Below are positions 1,842 to 39,271 of a stretch of 64,000 nucleotides of DNA, in pieces. The notes below the pieces were generated by a model. It saw only the letters and a program-made list of their open reading frames with translations, was not told the origin of the DNA and did no database searches. A program made the translations under genes and the position numbers. The first letter of the stretch is position 1; each line of letters opens with the position of its first letter. The stretch is from Escherichia coli. Its GTDB lineage: Bacteria; Pseudomonadota; Gammaproteobacteria; Enterobacterales; Enterobacteriaceae. The DNA lies in the NCBI RefSeq assembly GCF_044324785.1, contig NZ_CP172127.1. One strand, given 5' to 3'.

Positions 1842-4274
1842 ATGACCACACTGAAACTGGATACGCTCAGCGACCGCATTAAAGCGCACAAAAATGCGCT
1901 GGTGCATATTGTGAAACCGCCGGTCTGTACCGAGCGCGCGCAGCACTATACTGAGATGTATCAACAACATCTCGATAAGCCGATCCCGGTACGTCGCGCG
2001 CTGGCGCTGGCGCATCACCTGGCGAATCGCACCATCTGGATCAAGCACGATGAGTTGATCATTGGCAACCAGGCAAGCGAAGTTCGCGCCGCGCCGATCT
2101 TCCCGGAATATACCGTCTCCTGGATCGAAAAAGAGATTGATGATCTGGCGGATCGTCCGGGTGCTGGTTTTGCGGTGAGCGAAGAGAACAAACGTGTTCT
2201 GCATGAAGTGTGCCCTTGGTGGCGCGGTCAGACGGTACAGGATCGCTGCTACGGCATGTTTACCGATGAGCAAAAAGGTCTGCTGGCGACCGGAATCATT
2301 AAAGCGGAAGGCAATATGACCTCCGGCGATGCGCACCTGGCGGTGAATTTCCCGCTACTGCTGGAAAAAGGTCTTGATGGTCTGCGCGAGAAAGTAGCGG
2401 AACGTCGCTCGCGCATCAACCTGACGGTGCTGGAAGATTTGCACGGCGAGCAGTTCCTGAAAGCGATTGATATCGTGCTGGTGGCAGTCAGTGAACACAT
2501 TGAACGTTTCGCTGCCCTGGCGCGTGAAATGGCAGCCACTGAAACCCGCGAAAGCCGTCGCGATGAACTGCTGGCGATAGCAGAAAACTGCGATCTTATC
2601 GCCCACCAGCCGCCGCAGACTTTCTGGCAGGCGCTGCAACTGTGCTACTTCATCCAGTTGATTTTGCAGATCGAATCTAACGGTCACTCGGTATCGTTTG
2701 GTCGTATGGACCAGTATCTCTACCCGTACTATCGCCGCGACGTTGAACTGAACCAGACACTGGATCGTGAACACGCCATCGAGATGCTGCATAGCTGCTG
2801 GTTAAAATTGCTGGAAGTGAACAAAATCCGCTCCGGCTCGCACTCGAAAGCCTCTGCGGGAAGTCCGCTGTATCAGAACGTCACCATTGGCGGACAAAAT
2901 CTGGTTGATGGTCAACCAATGGACGCGGTGAATCCACTCTCTTACGCGATCCTCGAATCCTGCGGTCGCCTGCGTTCTACTCAGCCTAACCTCAGCGTGC
3001 GTTACCATGCAGGAATGAGCAACGATTTCCTCGACGCCTGCGTACAGGTGATCCGCTGCGGCTTCGGGATGCCGGCGTTCAACAACGACGAAATCGTCAT
3101 CCCGGAATTTATTAAACTCGGTATTGAACCGCAGGACGCTTACGACTATGCAGCGATTGGTTGTATCGAAACCGCCGTCGGTGGCAAATGGGGCTATCGC
3201 TGTACCGGCATGAGCTTTATCAACTTCGCCCGCGTGATGCTGGCGGCGCTGGAAGGCGGGCGTGATGCCACCAGCGGCAAAGTGTTCCTGCCACAAGAAA
3301 AAGCGTTGTCAGCGGGTAACTTCAACAACTTCGATGAAGTAATGGACGCATGGGATACGCAAATCCGTTACTACACGCGTAAATCAATCGAAATCGAATA
3401 TGTCGTCGACACCATGCTGGAAGAGAACGTACACGATATTCTCTGCTCGGCGCTGGTGGATGACTGTATTGAGCGAGCGAAAAGTATCAAGCAAGGCGGC
3501 GCTAAATATGACTGGGTTTCTGGCCTGCAGGTCGGCATTGCTAACCTCGGCAACAGCCTGGCGGCAGTGAAGAAACTGGTATTTGAACAGGGCGCGATTG
3601 GTCAGCAACAGCTGGCTGCCGCACTGGCGGATGACTTCGACGGCCTGACTCACGAGCAGCTGCGTCAGCGGCTGATTAACGGTGCGCCTAAGTACGGCAA
3701 CGACGATGATACTGTCGATACGCTGCTGGCTCGCGCTTATCAGACCTATATCGACGAACTAAAACAGTACCATAACCCGCGCTATGGTCGTGGTCCGGTT
3801 GGCGGCAATTATTACGCGGGTACGTCATCTATCTCCGCTAACGTACCCTTTGGCGCGCAGACGATGGCAACGCCGGACGGGCGTAAAGCCCACACCCCGC
3901 TGGCAGAAGGCGCTAGTCCGGCCTCCGGTACTGATCATCTTGGCCCTACTGCGGTCATTGGCTCAGTGGGTAAACTGCCTACGGCCGCGATTCTCGGCGG
4001 CGTGTTGCTCAACCAGAAACTGAATCCGGCAACGCTGGAGAACGAATCTGACAAGCAGAAACTGATGATCCTGCTACGCACCTTCTTTGAAGTGCATAAA
4101 GGCTGGCATATTCAGTACAACATCGTTTCCCGCGAAACGCTGCTGGAAGCGAAAAAACATCCGGATCAGTACCGCGATCTGGTAGTGCGTGTCGCGGGTT
4201 ATTCCGCCTTCTTCACTGCGCTCTCTCCAGACGCACAGGACGATATCATCGCCCGTACTGAACATATGCTGTAA
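1842..4274 (+). CDS. ybiW: glycyl radical enzyme, pyruvate formate-lyase family (PflF/YbiW)
   Basis: 810 aa; C-terminal glycyl radical motif RVAGYSAFF; immediately downstream of its activase. Confidence 0.9.
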
Positions 4275-4419
4275 CTCTTCCGCCCGGCGGCCACCGTCGC
4301 CGGGCCAAATCATTCACATCATCAATTTCATCCTCGCTTTCATTCGAAATATAATTTGTGCTCTGCGTCACATTGTTATTACACTGTTACGGTTTCATTT
4401 TCGAGCCAGGAGCACACCT

Positions 4420-5235
4420 ATGAGCGTAAAAGTTATCGTCACAGACATGGACGGTACTTTTCTTAACGACGCCAAAACGTACAACCAACCACGTTTTATG
4501 GCGCAATATCAGGAACTGAAAAAGCGCGGCATTAAGTTCGTTGTCGCCAGCGGTAATCAGTATTACCAGCTTATTTCGTTCTTTCCTGAGCTAAAGGATG
4601 AGATCTCTTTTGTCGCGGAAAACGGCGCACTGGTTTACGAACATGGCAAGCAACTGTTCCACGGCGAACTGACCCGACATGAATCGCGGATTGTTATTGG
4701 CGAGTTGCTAAAAGATAAGCAACTCAATTTTGTCGCCTGCGGTCTGCAAAGTGCATATGTCAGCGAAAACGCCCCCGAAGCATTCGTCGCACTGATGGCA
4801 AAACACTACCATCGCCTGAAACCTGTAAAAGATTATCAGGAGATTGACGACGTACTGTTCAAGTTTTCGCTCAACCTGCCGGATGAACAAATCCCGTTAG
4901 TGATCGACAAACTGCACGTAGCGCTCGACGGCATTATGAAGCCGGTTACCAGTGGTTTTGGCTTTATCGACCTGATTATTCCTGGCCTGCATAAAGCGAA
5001 TGGTATTTCGCGGTTACTGAAACGCTGGGATCTGTCACCGCAAAATGTGGTAGCGATTGGCGACAGCGGTAACGATGCGGAGATGCTGAAAATGGCGCGT
5101 TATTCCTTTGCGATGGGCAATGCTGCGGAAAACATTAAACAAATCGCCCGTTACGCTACCGATGATAATAATCATGAAGGCGCGCTGAATGTGATTCAGG
5201 CGGTGCTGGATAACACATCCCCTTTTAACAGCTGA
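4420..5235 (+). CDS. ybiV: HAD-family sugar phosphatase
   Basis: Internal ATG at 4420 of ORF 4189..5235; N-terminal HAD motif VTDMDGTFL; 271 aa. Confidence 0.9.
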
Positions 5236-5242
5236 CCTCTCT

Positions 5243-5278
5243 ACCGGAGCTATGCGCTCCGGTTTTCCCTTCTTTTTA
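5243..5278 (+). terminator. rho-independent terminator after ybiV
   Basis: Hairpin ccggagctatgcgctccgg followed by a T-rich tract. Confidence 0.55.
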
Positions 5279-5386
5279 CATCCTTTACATCACATCAAAT
5301 CATTAAACTTCCATTAACTTATTTATAACTTATATTGTCACATGCAAATCAGCATAGTTTCGAATGAAAGTTAATGCGAGGTGGTT

Positions 5387-6652
5387 ATGGCTTCTACTTT
5401 TACCAGCGACACATTGCCTGCCGATCACAAAGCAGCTATCCGTCAGATGAAGCACGCGCTGCGGGCGCAGCTTGGCGACGTCCAGCAGATCTTTAATCAG
5501 CTAAGCGATGACATTGCCACGCGAGTGGCTGAAATCAACGCACTCAAAGCACAGGGCGATGCCGTCTGGCCGGTGCTGTCTTATGCCGATATCAAAGCAG
5601 GTCATGTTACTGCAGAGCAGCGCGAACAAATTAAACGTCGCGGTTGTGCGGTGATAAAAGGCCATTTCCCCCGCGAACAAGCGCTAGGCTGGGATCAGTC
5701 GATGCTGGACTATCTGGACCGCAACCGCTTTGACGAGGTCTACAAAGGCCCCGGCGATAATTTCTTCGGGACACTCAGCGCTTCACGTCCCGAGATTTAC
5801 CCCATCTACTGGTCGCAGGCGCAAATGCAGGCCCGCCAGAGTGAAGAAATGGCGAATGTGCAGTCGTTTCTCAATCGTCTGTGGACATTTGAAAGTGATG
5901 GAAAGCAATGGTTTAACCCGGATGTGAGCGTCATCTACCCTGACCGTATCCGCCGCCGTCCGCCCGGAACGACCTCCAAAGGTCTTGGAGCGCATACCGA
6001 CTCCGGGGCGCTGGAACGCTGGCTGCTTCCAGCGTATCAGCACGTTTTCGCCAACGTCTTTAATGGCAATCTGGCGAAATACGATCCCTGGCATGCGGCA
6101 CATCGTACGGAAGTTGAAGAGTACACGGTGGACAACACCACCAAATGTTCCGTGTTTCGGACATTCCAGGGCTGGACAGCGCTCTCTGATATGCTGCCTG
6201 GTCAGGGGTTGCTGCACGTCGTGCCCATTCCTGAAGCCATGGCGTACGTACTGTTACGTCCGCTGCTTGATGATGTGCCGGAGGATGAACTGTGCGGCGT
6301 AGCGCCCGGAAGAGTGTTGCCGGTATCAGAGCAATGGCATCCACTGTTAATTGAGGCGTTAACCAGCATTCCAAAACTCGAGGCCGGAGACTCCGTCTGG
6401 TGGCACTGCGACGTCATCCATTCCGTTGCCCCCGTTGAAAATCAACAGGGTTGGGGCAACGTGATGTACATTCCTGCGGCACCGATGTGCGAGAAAAATC
6501 TTGCCTACGCGCACAAGGTGAAGGCCGCACTGGAAAAAGGCGCATCGCCGGGCGACTTCCCGCGCGAGGACTATGAAACAAACTGGGAAGGACGCTTTAC
6601 GCTTGCCGACCTCAACATTCACGGTAAGCGAGCGTTGGGAATCGACAGCTGA
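5387..6652 (+). CDS. ybiU: DUF1479-family protein YbiU
   Basis: ORF 5381..6652; ATG at 5387 has GAGG upstream; 421 aa recognised as YbiU. Confidence 0.85.
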   Translation: MASTFTSDTLPADHKAAIRQMKHALRAQLGDVQQIFNQLSDDIATRVAEINALKAQGDAVWPVLSYADIKAGHVTAEQREQIKRRGCAVIKGHFPREQALGWDQSMLDYLDRNRFDEVYKGPGDNFFGTLSASRPEIYPIYWSQAQMQARQSEEMANVQSFLNRLWTFESDGKQWFNPDVSVIYPDRIRRRPPGTTSKGLGAHTDSGALERWLLPAYQHVFANVFNGNLAKYDPWHAAHRTEVEEYTVDNTTKCSVFRTFQGWTALSDMLPGQGLLHVVPIPEAMAYVLLRPLLDDVPEDELCGVAPGRVLPVSEQWHPLLIEALTSIPKLEAGDSVWWHCDVIHSVAPVENQQGWGNVMYIPAAPMCEKNLAYAHKVKAALEKGASPGDFPREDYETNWEGRFTLADLNIHGKRALGIDS

Positions 6653-7722
6653 GTGTCGTACAGCCCTTCCCGTTCCACGGCGGTGTTCCCTTTTCCTGGG
6701 CGAACCCGCCGCACTGACTCCCGCACCGCCAATCGTCCGTGCAGCAGCAGCGAGCCCACCGGAGCATCCGGGCGAATCAGCCGCTGTTGCAACATTTGCA
6801 CCGCTTCATTGCCTAGCTCATCGCGTGGCACATGCACAGCCGTCAGGGGAACATCCTCGATTGCCGCAAGGTTAAAGCCGTCGATACTCATCACCGAGAC
6901 ATCCTGTGGTACGCGCAGACCACGACGATGTAGCGCATTTACCGTTCCCGCCGCCATAAAATCCCCGCCGACCAGAAACGCCGTCGGCAACGTCTTGCCA
7001 TTGGCGGCATCCAGCCACGCTCCGACCTTTTCTTCCGCTTCTTTAGCGCTAAAACTGCTGATATTCAGCAAATGACGGTCATGGTGAAAGGCCAGATTAT
7101 GCTGACGCCATGATTCTTTAATCCCTGCAAACCGCTGCTCCATAGTGTAGCGGCGCAGGCACATCACATTCATCACCTCCCGGTGACCCATTTCAAACAG
7201 ATAGCGGGCGGCGAACGCGCCAATTAACCGATGGTCCGGCGCAATCGCCGGGAGGCGCATTCGTTCATCACGGCAGTTGATCAGCACACAAGGCTTAGCG
7301 AGATCGGCGGCCAGATCATGGATGTGCGGATCGTCAATCCCCAGCAGGATCGCCGCCTGCGTATCTGCTTCATTCATCCGCGAGAGAAATAGCGCGGGAT
7401 CGCTGTCAAACTCCTCCAGCGCGCAGTAACGCAGCCGCACTTCATGCGGCGATAACGCTTTGCTGATGCTCTGGATCACACGGTAATAAAAGATATCAGA
7501 TCGTTGGTCAAAAGCGCGTTGCGGCGCGAAAATAATCAGGTTGTTCAGCAACATACGACCTGCTGCCATGCCATCCATCACGCCCAACTCACGCGCGCAG
7601 GCCAGCACCTGTTCGCGAGCGCGTGCACTGGTATTCGCTTTGCCAGCCAGCACCCGCGAAACCGTACTCGGCGATAGCCCGGTACGTGCGGCGATATCGG
7701 CGATTTTCAGCTTCTTGTCCAT
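6619..7722 (-). CDS. LacI-family transcriptional regulator (accessory locus)
   Basis: ORF 6619..7800 (-); likely start MDKKLKIADIAARTGLSPSTVSRVL (HTH at N-terminus) at 7722; periplasmic-binding-protein-like core; 3-prime end overlaps ybiU by 34 bp. Confidence 0.8.
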   Translation of the reverse strand: MDKKLKIADIAARTGLSPSTVSRVLAGKANTSARAREQVLACARELGVMDGMAAGRMLLNNLIIFAPQRAFDQRSDIFYYRVIQSISKALSPHEVRLRYCALEEFDSDPALFLSRMNEADTQAAILLGIDDPHIHDLAADLAKPCVLINCRDERMRLPAIAPDHRLIGAFAARYLFEMGHREVMNVMCLRRYTMEQRFAGIKESWRQHNLAFHHDRHLLNISSFSAKEAEEKVGAWLDAANGKTLPTAFLVGGDFMAAGTVNALHRRGLRVPQDVSVMSIDGFNLAAIEDVPLTAVHVPRDELGNEAVQMLQQRLIRPDAPVGSLLLHGRLAVRESVRRVRPGKGNTAVEREGLYDTQLSIPNARLP

Positions 7723-8016
7723 TTTGTGATCTGCCTCTAATTCGGAAATGACAGAATTTTCATGAGCAAAAAAGCCCATTCTGTCTGGCATTAAATCCAT
7801 TTCAGTAATGTATATCAGTCACTCATGGAAAAACGTGCACAAAACCCGCTTTCTTTCGCTTTTAGGGTCTCTTACTGTGAATTGGTAGAACAACTTCCAT
7901 ACAAAAATAATGGAAAAACGAACAACAAAGACTTTATTTATCAAAAAGTTAAAAGTGGTGTGACAACTCCATTCTGACGTTGCCGCACAAACCCTATACC
8001 ATTCTGTGGAGTGCAT

Positions 8017-31764: not shown

Positions 31765-32473
31765 TGCACAGAAAACCCCCAGCTAGGCTGGGGGTTCCGG
31801 AAAGCTTTCAGCTTTGAGCCAGTTATTAAAACCCCTTTTGATTTGTTAAAACACCTTGCGGTCTGGCAACTGCAAGTGTCAAACAAGAAATCAAAAGGGG
31901 GTCCCAATGGGGGACGAAAAGAGCTTAGCGCACACCCGCTGGAACTGTAAATATCACATAGTTTTTGCGCCGAAATACCGAAGACTGGCGTTTTACGGAG
32001 AGAAGCGTAGGGCGATAGGCAGTATTTTGAGAAAGCTGTGTGAGTGGAAAAGCGTACGGATTCTGGAAGCAGAGTGCTGCGCAGATCATATCCATATGCT
32101 TGTGGAAATCCCACCCAAAATGAGCGTATCCGGCTTTATGGGATATCTGAAAGGGAAAAGCAGTCTGATGCTTTACGAGCAGTTTGGGGATTTGAAATTC
32201 AAATACAGAAACAGGGAGTTCTGGTGCCGAGGGTACTATGTCGATACGGTGGGTAAGAACACGGCGAAGATACAGGACTACATAAAGCACCAGCTTGAAG
32301 AGGATAAAATGGGGGAGCAGTTATCGATTCCATATCCGGGCAGCCCGTTTACGGGCCGTAAGTAACGAAGTTGAATGCAAATGTCAGATCGTATGCGCCT
32401 GTTAGGGCGCGGCTGGTAACAGAGCCTTACAGGCGCATTTGAAAAACCTCCGGCTATGCCGGAGGATATTTAT
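31758..32473 (+). mobile_element. IS200 insertion sequence (ends approximate)
   Basis: Y1 transposase gene flanked by similar subterminal hairpins (cccccagc-tag-gctggggg at 31776-31794 and cctccggc-tat-gccggagg at 32447-32465); RBS-sequestering stem-loop at 31829-31904; about 0.7 kb. Confidence 0.75.
31907..32365 (+). CDS. tnpA: IS200 transposase TnpA (Y1/HUH)
   Basis: ORF 31856..32365; start MGDEKSLAHTRWNC at 31907 (152 aa); HUH motif HIHMLVEI and catalytic Tyr region. Confidence 0.9.
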   Translation: MGDEKSLAHTRWNCKYHIVFAPKYRRLAFYGEKRRAIGSILRKLCEWKSVRILEAECCADHIHMLVEIPPKMSVSGFMGYLKGKSSLMLYEQFGDLKFKYRNREFWCRGYYVDTVGKNTAKIQDYIKHQLEEDKMGEQLSIPYPGSPFTGRK

Positions 32474-34689: not shown

Positions 34690-36840
34690 TTAACGCCGCC
34701 GACGGCGTGGGGATTTCGTTTTTTCTTTCTTTTTAACTATACCTTCAGGGACTTCCGGTTGCTCTATCGGAAATACCGGTAATGCATCCAGTAGCCGCTT
34801 GCCATAATTTTTGGTCAGCAAGCGTTTGTCGTAAATCACCACTTCGCCCCAGCAACCGTGGCTTCGAATCAGTCGCCCAACCTGCTGAATCAGGTTAAAC
34901 GAGGCGCTCGGCAGGCTTTGCACCTCAAACGGATAGCGGTTGAGGCTTTTCAGCCATTCTCCTTCGGTGATCACCACCGGGCTGTCGATGGGCGGAAAAG
35001 CGATTTTGTGGATATGCACCTGGCTGAGCAGATCGCCTTTCAAATCAAGCCCTTCGGCAAATGACTGCAAGCCCACCAGCACGCTACGCTCACCGTTGGC
35101 AACGCGTTTGCGGTGCAGTTCAACTAAACGGTAACGCGGCTGATCGCCCTGCACCAGCAACATCAGGCGTAAATCCGTCACATAGTCGAGAAACCGCTGC
35201 ATCGCCCGTCCGCTGGCAAACAGTACCAACATACCGAGATGTTTTTTGCTCTCCACCTGTTTACGGAAAAAGGCCGCCATTTCGGCAATGTGCTGCTCTT
35301 CGTTGTCGATGGAAGGCTCAACGCGCATCCGGGGAATAACAATTTTGCCCTGTTCGCAGTGGTTAAAGGGCGAATCCAGCGCCACAAAGCGGTCGCCCGC
35401 TTTCTCTTTCAGCCCGCTCATCTCCTGCAAACGCGAAAAACTGTTCAGCGAACGCAAGGTTGCGGAAGTGACAATAATGTGCGGAATACTGCGCCACAGC
35501 AGCCTTTCCAGCTGATCGCTGACACGAATACCCACGCAGTGAAACCAGAGATGCAGCTGCCCTTCGCGCTCTTCCCGCGTCGCCCATTTGGTCACCGGCG
35601 CACCGGAAGATTGCGCCAGAGACGCCAGCCGCCAGAGTTTGCTTTGCGCCTCGAACATCCCCAGCGCGCGGTTCATCTGCAAAATCAACCGATGCAGACG
35701 TACAATGTCATGGCTGCCGGTTTTCTCACTTAAATCGTTAAGAAATAACTCCGCCAGACCACGCAGCATCTCGGTGAGTTTTGCCAGCCGTTGGCAGATC
35801 TCCAGCACTTCATCAGGCAGTTCGCCCATCGCAAAACGGTGCTCTGCCTCCTGCCCGGCAGGCATGTAGAGGTTGAGAATGTTGTTTAACGAGGCGATAA
35901 GCTCATACAACTCTTCACAATGGGCATTCAAACGCTCGGGGATCGCCAGCGGAGGGATGGTCTTCGGGCGAAACTGCTCCATACAGGTAGCGACCAGTTT
36001 CGTGAACAAGTCCAGCTGTAGCCGATACCAGGGCGCGGTGATTTCGGCGCTCATCTCCAGCGCATCCCGTGCCACATCCGGCAGGTGATGACCTTCGTCC
36101 AGCACCAGCAGTAAATTTTTCGGGTCAGGCAATACGGCTTCGCTTTCCATCGCCGCCATCACCAGCGCATGGTTTGCCACTACAACTTCCGCTTCCTGAA
36201 TTTCCCGACGAGCGACAAAAAACGGGCATTCGCGATAGTAATAACAGTTGCGGTTGAGGCAGCTGGCTTTGTCGGTACTCAACCGACGCCAGAGATCATC
36301 ATCAATGGCGATATCCGTATGATCGCGCAGACCATCCCATTTATAAGTGTCGAGATCGCCCTTCAACTTTGCACAACGCTTTTGCTCTTCCTGATTGTTC
36401 GGCGTCAGCTCGTCGTCAAGAAACGCCAGCAGATCCTGTTGCGTGGGTTCAGTACTGGCAAGCGCTGTCAGATTACGCGGGCAAACGTAGCGCCCACGCC
36501 CAAAAGCGGCAGTGAATTTAAGATCGGGAATGATCTTTTTCAGCAATGGTAAATCTTTGCTGTAGATCTGATCCTGCAACGCCACGTTGGCGGTACTCAC
36601 CACCAACGTTTTTTGCTCTTCGCGGGCAATGGCGATGCCGGGAATCAAATAGGAGAGCGTTTTCCCAACGCCGGTGGGTGCTTCAATCGCCAGATGCCGC
36701 CCTTCTTCTCCGGCCAGCGTTTTGGCGACGTCCGCAATCATCTGCCGCTGCGGCGCACGGGGAATAAAGTCGGGGATCTGTTCCTGAAGCGCCTTATACC
36801 AGGCGGCAATTTGCGCTTTAAGCGCGGCGGTTAATGCCAT
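34690..36840 (-). CDS. dinG: ATP-dependent DNA helicase DinG
   Basis: 716 aa; Walker A APTGVGKT; DEGH box; Fe-S cluster cysteines. Confidence 0.9.
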   Translation of the reverse strand: MALTAALKAQIAAWYKALQEQIPDFIPRAPQRQMIADVAKTLAGEEGRHLAIEAPTGVGKTLSYLIPGIAIAREEQKTLVVSTANVALQDQIYSKDLPLLKKIIPDLKFTAAFGRGRYVCPRNLTALASTEPTQQDLLAFLDDELTPNNQEEQKRCAKLKGDLDTYKWDGLRDHTDIAIDDDLWRRLSTDKASCLNRNCYYYRECPFFVARREIQEAEVVVANHALVMAAMESEAVLPDPKNLLLVLDEGHHLPDVARDALEMSAEITAPWYRLQLDLFTKLVATCMEQFRPKTIPPLAIPERLNAHCEELYELIASLNNILNLYMPAGQEAEHRFAMGELPDEVLEICQRLAKLTEMLRGLAELFLNDLSEKTGSHDIVRLHRLILQMNRALGMFEAQSKLWRLASLAQSSGAPVTKWATREEREGQLHLWFHCVGIRVSDQLERLLWRSIPHIIVTSATLRSLNSFSRLQEMSGLKEKAGDRFVALDSPFNHCEQGKIVIPRMRVEPSIDNEEQHIAEMAAFFRKQVESKKHLGMLVLFASGRAMQRFLDYVTDLRLMLLVQGDQPRYRLVELHRKRVANGERSVLVGLQSFAEGLDLKGDLLSQVHIHKIAFPPIDSPVVITEGEWLKSLNRYPFEVQSLPSASFNLIQQVGRLIRSHGCWGEVVIYDKRLLTKNYGKRLLDALPVFPIEQPEVPEGIVKKKEKTKSPRRRRR

Positions 36841-36854
36841 GAGAAAACCTGAAA

Positions 36855-36874
36855 TACTGTATAAACAGCCAATA
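36855..36874. promoter_or_regulatory. LexA (SOS) box of dinG, asymmetric type
   Basis: tactgtataaacagccaata immediately upstream of the dinG start; CTG...CAG half-sites with non-canonical spacing. Confidence 0.6.
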
Positions 36875-37010
36875 TTGTGGCATTTTTCGGTTTTCAGGGG
36901 TAATGGTTTTTCTGTTTCTGGAAAGCGGCTCGCAATAACGTTTTCTGGAAGTGAGATTTTCCCGCAGCAGAAGAAACATCATTGCGTAGTAAAAGACAAT
37001 GCACGCAGGC

Positions 37011-37292
37011 TTATTGCGCTGGTGGCCATTGCAGGGCGGTATGCAAAACACGCAGTACCGAGAGCGTATCGCCCTCCACTTGGTAGATCAGCACATAATG
37101 CGGTCTGACAACGGCTTCATGAGTGCCAGCGACTCGTCCGGCCCGATACATCTGCGGGCGTTCACAAACCTGTTCCGCAATGGCTTCAAATTGATTATCA
37201 AGGGCAATTGCCGCTTGCGGATTATCTTTACTGATGTATACCATGATTTGCTCCCTGTCAGACAGGGACATTGGCTTCCATTCCAGACGCAT
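37011..37292 (-). CDS. RelE/ParE-family toxin (ParE-like), 93 aa
   Basis: Pattern typical of ParE/RelE-fold toxins (YISKDNPQAA ... YVLIYQVEGDTLSVLRVLHTALQWP); start ATG overlaps the upstream stop (TAATG). Confidence 0.7.
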   Translation of the reverse strand: MRLEWKPMSLSDREQIMVYISKDNPQAAIALDNQFEAIAEQVCERPQMYRAGRVAGTHEAVVRPHYVLIYQVEGDTLSVLRVLHTALQWPPAQ

Positions 37293-37732
37293 TAATCCCC
37301 CTTCAACAAGGCTTTTTTACGGGCAGCAAATAGACTTTTGGCCTCTTCATGAGAGAGCGCTGGGCGTGGATCGTCAATGGCGGCCTGCACCTGCTCTCGA
37401 AACCAGGCATCATACGCGGCAGCTTCATGAGCTCGTTTTAATGCCTCTGCCCTGTCAGGTCGGGTCGTTTTCTTCTGACCATCCGGGTCGTAATTAGAGG
37501 CGTCGACTTCAAACCGGGCAATACCAACATCTTTCAGGTAGTTGACAACCGTTTCCAGCCGTTTGAACAGGCGGATTTGCCGACTGCGTTGTGCTGCAAG
37601 AGGCCGTTCAGTGTGGCCGTATTTCACGGTCAACGACCAGCCTCCCTGGGTGCCAATAACGTGTGCTGCATCCACTACGCCAGACTCAACCAGTTTATGT
37701 AAGGTTGAGTGATCGATCGTTTCTGGTGCCAT
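37292..37732 (-). CDS. putative antitoxin partner of the ParE-like toxin, atypically long (146 aa), function unknown
   Basis: Coupled to the toxin gene by a 1-nt overlap; AGAGG about 10 nt upstream of the ATG; no confident family assignment by eye. Confidence 0.55.
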   Translation of the reverse strand: MAPETIDHSTLHKLVESGVVDAAHVIGTQGGWSLTVKYGHTERPLAAQRSRQIRLFKRLETVVNYLKDVGIARFEVDASNYDPDGQKKTTRPDRAEALKRAHEAAAYDAWFREQVQAAIDDPRPALSHEEAKSLFAARKKALLKGD

Positions 37733-37768
37733 AATGCGCTAACCTCTTTGTATACAGCATGCAATTTA

Positions 37769-37812
37769 TAATTAAAGATAGCGCAATTAATAATTAAAGA
37801 TAGCGCAATTAA
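37769..37812. repeat. perfect tandem direct repeat, 2 x 22 bp, in the promoter region of the toxin-antitoxin-like operon
   Basis: taattaaagatagcgcaattaa at 37769-37790 and again at 37791-37812, 37-80 bp upstream of the start at 37732; candidate operator. Confidence 0.6.
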
Positions 37813-37909
37813 TAATAAATTGCATTTTTTGATCGTAAATTGTCCAGGGTGAAATTGCGGTAGAAAGAGACTTGTTGCGAAGATGCCGGGCATCGCCCGG
37901 CATAAAAAG

Positions 37910-39271
37910 TTACTGCGCAGCGGCAGGTTTACGCGGACGGCGGCGACGTTGTTGTTCGCCTGCCGGTTTGGCATCGCCGAGACGACGAGACGGTTTTTCT
38001 GCAGGTTTTGCGCTTGCAGATTTTGCACCACCTTCAGCGCGGCGTGGTTGCTGTTGACCGCGACCACCGCCTTGTCCACGACCGCCGCCACGTTGCTGGC
38101 GACCATTCTGGATCGGTTCGGCTTTGATTGACGGGTCCGGCTCATAGCCCGGAATCGCAATGCGCGGGATCTCTTTTTTCAGCAGTTTTTCGATATCACG
38201 CAGCAGTTTGTGTTCATCCACACACACCAGCGATAACGCTTCACCGGTGGCTGCGGCACGACCGGTACGCCCGATACGGTGGACATAATCTTCCGGTACG
38301 TTTGGCAGTTCATAGTTGACCACGTGCGGCAGCTCTTCAATATCCAGGCCGCGCGCAGCGATGTCAGTTGCCACCAGTACACGAATATCGCCCGATTTAA
38401 AATCGGCCAGCGCACGGGTACGCGCACCTTGCGATTTATTACCGTGGATCGCCGCACTGCGGATGCCATCTTTATTGAGCTGTTCAGCCAGATGGTTAGC
38501 GCCATGTTTGGTACGGGTAAACACCAGCACCTGCTGCCAGTTCCCTTTCCCAATCATGTGCGACAGCAATTCGCGTTTGCGTTTCTTATCAACAAAGTGA
38601 ACATGCTGGGTCACCTGATCAGACGCGGTATTGCGGCGTGCCACTTCGATTTCCAGCGGGTTGTGCAGCAGTTTTTCCGCCAGGTTTTTAATATCGTCAG
38701 AGAAAGTGGCGGAGAACAACAGGTTCTGGCGCTTCGCTGGCAGCTTAGTCAACACACGACGGATATCGTGGATAAAGCCCATATCGAGCATGCGGTCAGC
38801 TTCATCGAGGACGAGAATTTCAACCTGATCCAGCTTCACTGCATTCTGATGTTCCAGGTCCAGCAAACGTCCCGGCGTTGCCACCAGCACATCAACGCCA
38901 CCGCGCAGCTTCATCATCTGCGGGTTGATGCTGACGCCACCAAACACCACCAGCGAACGAATGTTCAGGTATTTGCTGTAATCACGGACGTTTTCGCCAA
39001 TCTGCGCCGCCAGTTCACGGGTCGGGGTAAGAATGAGCGCACGTACCGGACGACGCCCTTTGGCGTGCGGCTGGCGAGTGATCAGGTGTTGCAACAGCGG
39101 CAGCGTAAAGCCCGCTGTTTTGCCGGTACCGGTCTGGGCACTGGCCATCAGGTCGCGGCCCTCCAGCACCGCAGGGATCGCCTGCTGCTGAATAGGGGTG
39201 GGTTCACGGTAACCCTGCTCGGCAACGGCGCGCAGGATATCAGGGCTTAAACCCAAAGAATCGAAAGACAT
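37910..39271 (-). CDS. rhlE: ATP-dependent RNA helicase RhlE (DEAD-box)
   Basis: 453 aa; Q motif, Walker [13 protein letters not shown] box, RG-rich C-terminal tail. Confidence 0.9.

Follow-up and report, generated by a model that had tools for sequence, protein, structure and literature searches.

A 64-kb stretch of Escherichia coli DNA (contig NZ_CP172127.1), referred to hereafter as the window and used for all coordinates, carries a two-gene cassette between the genes rhlE and dinG. The cassette is probably a chromosomal toxin-antitoxin (TA) module of type II and of the PaaA2-ParE kind, placed in a slot whose content differs between strains and working by the mechanism proposed below. By sequence, its toxin is of the ParE type. 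Its antitoxin combines a PaaA2-type C-terminus with an N-terminal domain that is distantly related to the ParC proteins of plasmids, and a perfect dyad upstream of the two genes is likely to be their operator. As a gene call the module is minor: RefSeq and UniRef already name it, some 6% of the complete E. coli genomes have it, and its arrangement follows the standard type II TA scheme. It is, in addition, a natural two-gene counterpart of the three-gene paaR2-paaA2-parE2 system, and is convenient for studying how antitoxins of the PaaA2 type are regulated.

A toxin-antitoxin pair replaces ybiA

In E. coli K-12, the rhlE-dinG interval is occupied by ybiA, which lies on the strand opposite to that of rhlE and dinG. 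YbiA is an enzyme of the NADAR type and reverses the ADP-ribosylation of guanine. The initial annotation of the window had noticed that a YbiA-like open reading frame (ORF) was missing from this interval and had stated that K-12 has one there. Both statements hold: ybiA was confirmed at this place in K-12, and a tblastn search with K-12 YbiA over the whole 64 kb gave a best E-value of 0.07, at an unrelated position. Alignment with K-12 and with E. coli strain ECE313 defines the limits of the exchanged segment (Table 1) and confirms that K-12 lacks the cassette. The proposed two-gene, minus-strand operon at 37011-37909 was recovered with both its ORFs, and its coordinates are exact, with the start of dinG at 36840 and the end of rhlE at 37910. 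Neither the ORF list nor the alignment gave a third ORF in the 943-bp cassette.

The two genes have the layout of a type II TA operon, with small co-oriented neighbours, the antitoxin gene first and an overlap of 1 nt. This overlap, TAATG, had been pointed out before and is read directly from the bases at 37290-37294. It is predicted to couple translation of the toxin gene to that of the antitoxin gene; a Shine-Dalgarno-like run stands just upstream of the junction, and an AGAGG run is found 10 nt ahead of the antitoxin ATG. The adjacency of the two genes is kept in all intact orthologous loci examined, where the ParE-type ORF overlaps the antitoxin gene by 1-4 nt or lies 8 nt downstream of it. 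The distal product, described earlier as a 93-aa toxin of the ParE/RelE fold, matches the Pfam family ParE_toxin (PF05016) with an E-value of 1.5e-13. Its partner matches the Pfam family PaaA2 (PF21217) and contains, in addition, a ParC-like domain. Of 5,426 complete E. coli genomes, 324 carry this pair in this very place. Because of the PF05016 and PF21217 matches and of this recurrence, the pair can be regarded as a genuine module and not as a chance pair of ORFs.

The antitoxin has two parts

The antitoxin could be described as composed of a folded N-terminal domain, a linker and a C-terminal pair of helices. Residues 104-130 match PaaA2 with an E-value of 4.2e-10. The C-terminus also matches the PaaA2 chains 3zbe_A (E=2e-4) and 5czf_A of the PDB, and it shares with PaaA2 the motif Y-x-x-W-[FL]-R-x-x-V...DPRPA. 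The RelB-antitoxin model of NCBIfam reaches 47.1 bits, with a cut-off of 50, and covers only the 30 PaaA2-like residues. The N-terminal domain scores 33 bits against the NCBIfam ParC model NF041544, which is below the equivalog cut-off of 95, and it aligns with a bona fide ParC from a Xanthomonas plasmid with 26% identity (BLASTP, E=8e-7). By these family matches, the protein is a PaaA2-type C-terminus fused to a ParC-like N-terminal domain, and it is not a classical ParD.

A model of the full antitoxin was obtained with AlphaFold2 from an alignment of 75 sequences, with a mean predicted local distance difference test (pLDDT) score of 94. It consists of a helix [8-17], three strands, a second helix [59-69] and a strand [75-77], followed by the linker and by the two long helices [92-120] and [128-145]. 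Modelled alone, the N-terminal domain has a pLDDT of 91.9. It bears a conserved basic cluster made of R43, R49, R54 (97% conserved), K57, R58 and K67. A Foldseek search of the PDB with this domain gave nothing at an E-value of 1e-3 or below, the best match being the ribosomal protein eL38, and a fold search of AFDB50 returned uncharacterised relatives only. A library search with the domain gave 416 cluster representatives. Among the best 150 of these, a PaaA2-like C-terminus is present in 70; the other 80 lack it and have a median length of 108 aa. The ParC-like domain thus occurs both fused and as a stand-alone protein.

Two further arrangements concern this protein. In the assembly GCA_028598205.1, a 2-bp insertion, CA, at locus position 1143-1144 causes a frameshift around codon 28, within the N-terminal domain, and affects neither the PaaA2 part nor the toxin; it is either a natural truncation or a sequencing error. 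On a plasmid of Xanthomonas hortorum (locus 5426-6630), a homologous antitoxin-ParE pair adjoins a bona fide parC gene (NF041544, 99.7 bits) and a replication gene, and an antitoxin paralogue without a toxin is found at 3989-4447.

A conserved dyad overlaps the predicted promoter

The dyad GCAATT-N7-AATTGC has a single exact match in the window. By our arithmetic, 12 specified bases would be expected there about 0.004 times by chance. The dyad lies within a longer inverted repeat of 17 nt (37759-37775 and 37809-37825), and its spacer holds TATTAT, the predicted -10 hexamer of a sigma-70 promoter. Sixteen homologous loci, some chromosomal and some plasmid-borne, were compared, and dyads with at most two mismatches were counted. 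Ten loci other than that of the window have the dyad, at a distance of 68-75 nt upstream of the start codon of the antitoxin gene. These loci represent seven genera and come from Escherichia whittamii, a plasmid of Klebsiella, Erwinia, Pantoea, Serratia, Photorhabdus (four loci) and a betaproteobacterial metagenome-assembled genome. Including the window, 11 dyads occur in 3.4 kb of upstream DNA and 3 in 99 kb elsewhere, which corresponds to an enrichment of about 100-fold. Since it is conserved at a fixed distance in seven genera, on chromosomes and on a plasmid, the dyad travels with the module across hosts, and it is likely to be an autoregulatory operator. Upstream of stand-alone ParC-like genes from Aeromonas and Xanthomonas the dyad is absent, and each of these genes has palindromes of its own; this result is neutral as to DNA binding by the N-terminal domain.

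Between the dyad and the antitoxin gene are two tandem 22-bp units, each with one AATTGC half-site. Together with segment [37805-37819], they make three half-sites spaced by 22 bp. E. coli ECE313 and E. whittamii each have a single unit. The second unit, a duplication specific to the lineage of the window, lengthens the leader by 22 nt and adds one half-site. The same duplication was found in independent NCBI draft assemblies that encode the identical toxin, one of them identical to the window over 3,282 bp, and it is therefore not an assembly artefact. It is absent from the complete-genome E. coli alleles examined. A megablast search of E. coli genomes with the 121-bp AT-rich promoter segment gave no match, a result that is likely due to the low-complexity filter or to the short length of the query and not to absence of the segment.

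The most economical candidate for the reader of this operator is the N-terminal ParC-like domain, because the dyad travels with the module, the toxin and the PaaA2 segment are not DNA binders, and the cassette has no third gene. PaaA2 itself lacks a DNA-binding domain (PMC8630535). We consider the chances of this assignment to be slightly better than even. A bolder proposal follows the same lines and must be held tentatively, at somewhat short of an even chance: PF28031 would be an unrecognised class of antitoxin DNA-binding domain, with an eL38-like α/β fold distinct from the ribbon-helix-helix (RHH), helix-turn-helix, AbrB and Phd-YefM classes, and it would read GCAATT-N7-AATTGC.

Several points weigh against the N-terminal domain as operator reader, or against the operator itself. 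The dyad is absent upstream of modules that are 47% identical or less, which have palindromes of their own, and the promoter that it overlaps is a prediction from a consensus scan only. The domain is unlike the known DNA-binding folds of antitoxins. Its nearest solved structures are eL38, which binds RNA, and the periplasmic domain of FtsH, which is an oligomerising module. The stand-alone ParC of plasmid NAH7 has no assigned function; it is dispensable for plasmid stability and had no effect on the transcription of the conjugation genes tested (PMC12421886). No experimental paper on the cassette was found in the literature. Several of these points also suit a different explanation, in which the module is a genuine ParE/PaaA2 pair whose ParC-like domain serves for oligomerisation, stability or partner binding, and in which the dyad is a site for a host factor or a part of the promoter architecture. 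About half of the family representatives being stand-alone proteins of unassigned role agrees with it as well. We regard this explanation as rather unlikely, though it has to be taken seriously. The dyad moves with the module across Gammaproteobacteria and Betaproteobacteria and onto a plasmid, which argues for a reader encoded by the module; the cassette offers no protein other than the ParC-like domain for this role, and the domain has the conserved basic patch described above.

The toxin belongs with ParE structures

The match to PF05016 cannot separate ParE from RelE, because this family also contains RelE of E. coli K-12; it includes, moreover, a subcluster whose toxins cleave mRNA (PMC11980606). 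For the same reason, the initial statement that K-12 has no ParE-family toxin on its chromosome has to be divided. It stands, as a matter of general knowledge, for ParE in the strict sense, and it fails for ParE in the sense of PF05016. To place the 93-aa protein within the family, we rely on comparison with known structures. Searched as a single sequence against the PDB, it matched ParE proteins only, the best being ParE2 of E. coli O157 (5cw7_B, E=2e-7), with which it shares about 30% identity. A profile built from the toxin and ten orthologues was then compared with all PDB sequences. ParE2 of O157 was again first, with an E-value of 1.3e-16, and the top seven matches were all ParE-type structures, with ParE3 and ParE2 of Mesorhizobium opportunistum, ParE1 of Caulobacter crescentus, ParE of Shewanella oneidensis and ParE of Pseudomonas aeruginosa following in this order. 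Chains of the RelE type (3g5o, 2khe and HP0892) aligned over short segments with E-values of 0.02 or worse, and E. coli RelE was not among the matches. Because the profile groups the toxin with defined ParE structures while RelE chains are matched weakly and partially, we assign the protein, which has the RelE/ParE fold, to the ParE type in the strict sense.

This assignment does not go unopposed. The NCBIfam model RelE_StbE gives 37.3 bits on the toxin, above its cut-off of 27.9, and in many RefSeq entries the protein is listed as 'mRNA interferase toxin, RelE/StbE family'. The nearest characterised toxin, ParE2 of O157, induces SOS and colocalises with the nucleoid, and its direct binding to GyrA was not detected. 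Together with the mRNA-cleaving members of PF05016, these points would suit a RelE-like, ribosome-dependent mRNA endonuclease with no action on gyrase or on DNA topology. Such a toxin is improbable, given the ranking of the profile search and the details of the sequence. BLASTP gave no significant match between the toxin and K-12 RelE, and in the weak, insignificant alignment obtained, residues K52, K54 and R61 of RelE are opposite E, V and V of the toxin. In the orthologue alignment, the toxin ends in a proline-rich tail that extends 9 residues past the conserved His84. RelE-type RNases need a C-terminal helix that is absent in ParE proteins (10.1101/2025.07.24.666505), and the tail seems to leave little room for such a helix. 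The charges of the two proteins, which also speak against the proposed pair, are the reverse of the usual TA pattern, with isoelectric points of 5.85 for the toxin and 8.86 for the antitoxin.

The module is probably old and maintained

The coding region of the cassette was found, with a coverage of at least 80%, in the 324 genomes mentioned above, where it is always chromosomal, at the same site and in single copy. A segment of the ybiA type, as in K-12, is present in 3,429 of the 5,426 genomes with the same coverage threshold. In E. coli N3 (N3 locus 3428-7803), whose flank on the dinG side shares 99.3% identity with the window, the slot holds espX2, a gene for a type III secretion system effector, and a gene for a 561-aa hypothetical protein. 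Since ybiA, the TA pair and espX2 occupy it in different strains, the rhlE-dinG slot is polymorphic, with at least three cargos. The cassette is also present in E. whittamii, where the antitoxin is 99% identical. Named sources of close toxin relatives include E. marmotae and E. ruysiae. In other genera, homologous modules are found on plasmids, and beside integrases and insertion sequence (IS) elements. On plasmid pBPHY02 of Paraburkholderia phymatum (locus 2694-2999), a 101-aa ORF without an NCBIfam match abuts the antitoxin start, between integrase genes; the module may have a three-gene form here.

The cassette is 97.3% identical to that of ECE313 and 92.5% identical to that of E. whittamii; for dinG, these values are 97.1% and 93.3%. 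That the window itself might come from E. whittamii was considered, in view of the 99% identical antitoxin of that species, and rejected, since the flanks have 97% identity to E. coli and 93% identity to E. whittamii. The divergence of the cassette therefore tracks that of the flanking core genes, and this fits better with an old, stably kept polymorphism and a long vertical residence in the genus than with a recent acquisition. The PADLOC models of anti-phage defence did not match either protein. Among the PHROGs, only families of unknown function were matched, and a phage collection gave one weak match to the toxin; these searches thus lend no support to an origin from a prophage or a defence island.

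Against ECE313 and E. whittamii, the toxin has a ratio of nonsynonymous to synonymous substitution rates of 0.16-0.19 and the antitoxin one of 0.04-0.06. These values, obtained from small counts, point to purifying selection on both genes. Chromosomal TA pairs are, as is generally known, often attenuated, one public assembly from a viable strain has the 2-bp antitoxin insertion, and the toxin differs from the ECE313 allele at four amino acid positions, yet a decaying or domesticated remnant that has lost its toxicity is very unlikely, with both ORFs intact and apparently under selection, the full 722 of 722 nt of coding region at unchanged length in all 40 genomes sampled across the ranking of the 324, and the residues invariant across genera kept in the toxin.

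The exact protein sequences are already public: at least 1,000 contigs encode the antitoxin, and 272 encode the toxin. RefSeq names them 'antitoxin PaaA2 family protein' (or 'hypothetical protein') and 'type II toxin-antitoxin system RelE/ParE family toxin'; an E. coli orthologue that differs from the antitoxin by one residue bears the name 'antitoxin PaaA2 family protein'.

Proposed mechanism

In the mechanism that we propose, both genes would be co-transcribed from the AT-rich promoter and translationally coupled through TAATG. The C-terminal helix pair of the antitoxin would wrap around ParE and neutralise it, in the manner of the solved PaaA2-ParE2 complex. The N-terminal ParC-like domain would dimerise and bind the dyad, together with the additional AATTGC half-sites placed 22 bp apart over the promoter. 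The resulting complex, either the N-terminal dimer alone or the dimer with the toxin as co-repressor, would repress its own operon. One polypeptide would thus combine what O157 divides between PaaR2 and PaaA2. Upon loss of the presumably labile antitoxin, free ParE would poison DNA gyrase or otherwise DNA topology, leading to DNA damage, SOS induction and growth arrest. Should the N-terminal domain read the dyad, the PaaA2 family would have in this locus its 'complete', two-component form, and the ParC proteins of plasmids would receive a first biochemical function, namely operator binding and repression.

Features and surroundings of the locus

The features discussed are collected in Table 1. 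The predicted DNA-damaging toxin is encoded directly upstream of the SOS gene dinG, in the same orientation, which may be a coincidence. Only about 140 bp lie between the toxin stop and the dinG upstream region, which follows 3' of it in the same orientation and holds the sequence TATTGGCTGTTTATACAGTA at 36855-36874, which we take to be the non-canonical SOS box of dinG. Transcription running on from the TA operon into dinG would meet a single predicted barrier, a weak terminator-like hairpin at 37003-37019. No RNA family of Rfam was found within 36500-38300. Farther away, at about 31900-32370, a tnpA gene of the IS200/IS605 family stands between ybiE and hcxB, a place where K-12 lacks it; it was identified from the annotation of E. 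coli N3, to which this region is 99.5% identical.

Table 1 Features of the rhlE-dinG interval and its flanks, in window positions.
Feature	Position	Strand	Basis or remark
dinG	34690-36840	minus	flank, downstream of the pair
dinG upstream region, unchanged, 3' of the cassette	36841-36939	minus	99/99 identity to K-12
Whole exchanged cassette, 943 bp, in the ybiA slot of K-12	36940-37882	minus	alignment with K-12 and ECE313, blastn breakpoints
Toxin gene, 93 aa	37011-37292	minus	ORF with ATG start
TAATG stop/start overlap	37290-37294	minus	sequence; upstream stop TAA 37294-37292, downstream ATG 37292-37290, one base in common
Antitoxin gene, 146 aa	37292-37732	minus	ORF with ATG start
GAAGGGG, Shine-Dalgarno-like run	37303-37297	minus	just upstream of the TAATG junction
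Two PaaA2-type helices, toxin-neutralising part by homology, codons 92-145	37298-37459	minus	PaaA2 alignment; model helices 92-120 and 128-145
ParC-like domain, Pfam PF28031, codons 1-80, α-β3-α-β	37493-37732	minus	putative operator-binding and dimerisation domain
Two tandem 22-bp units, each with an AATTGC half-site	37761-37804	.	repeat search
Perfect dyad GCAATT-N7-AATTGC, 19 bp, proposed operator core	37805-37823	.	only exact match in the 64-kb window
Predicted sigma-70 promoter: TTTACG, 16-nt spacer, TATTAT	37812-37839	minus	consensus scan, 9/12 matches
GC-rich hairpin directly 3' of rhlE, common to K-12, left edge of the exchange	37883-37903	.	inverted repeat, K-12 alignment
rhlE	37910-39271	minus	flank, upstream of the pair

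Comparison with known systems

The closest known system is paaR2-paaA2-parE2 of prophage CP-933P in E. coli O157:H7 (PDB 5CW7, 5CZE, 5CZF and 3ZBE). The cassette has in common with it the best structural match of the toxin, the PaaA2 motif and the order of antitoxin followed by toxin. However, the O157 system has three components, with a separate regulator, PaaR2, and a PaaA2 of 63 aa that has no DNA-binding domain, and it is located in a prophage immunity region. The cassette has no third gene, its antitoxin carries an additional ParC-like domain of about 80 aa, and it lies in the core chromosome outside any prophage context. Antitoxins of the PaaA2 family are described as short and as part of three genes with a separate PaaR, whereas the antitoxin of the cassette has 146 aa and a folded N-terminal domain. 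The O157 study raised the question whether PaaA2 once had a DNA-binding domain that has decayed (PMC8630535). The two-domain antitoxin, which is widespread, is a candidate for the undecayed state.

With the classical parDE systems (RK2, ParDE1 of Caulobacter and ParDE2 of Vibrio), the module shares a toxin of the ParE fold, an antitoxin whose N-terminal part is regulatory and whose C-terminal part wraps the toxin, and a bicistronic, autoregulated operon, autoregulation being a proposal in the case of the cassette. ParD binds DNA through an RHH domain, while the N-terminal domain of the cassette antitoxin is predicted to have an α/β, eL38-like fold and gives no RHH match. The similarity of the toxin to classical ParE structures is weak in the profile search (3kxe, E=1e-3; 8c24, E=0.1).

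The ParC family (NF041544), which includes parC of the IncP-9 plasmid NAH7 and of Xanthomonas plasmids, contains distant homologues of the N-terminal domain. Unlike these, the domain scores below the equivalog cut-off, is fused to a PaaA2 segment, is paired with a toxin and lies outside a parAB operon, its neighbours being rhlE and dinG. Finally, relBE of K-12 has the fold of the RelE/ParE superfamily, the PF05016 match and the operon layout in common with the cassette, but there is no significant pairwise similarity between the toxin and RelE, whose catalytic residues are not matched in the weak alignment obtained. Set among these systems, the locus is an ordinary, intact and database-annotated TA module, an uncharacterised member of its class, and the front domain of its antitoxin is the exception.

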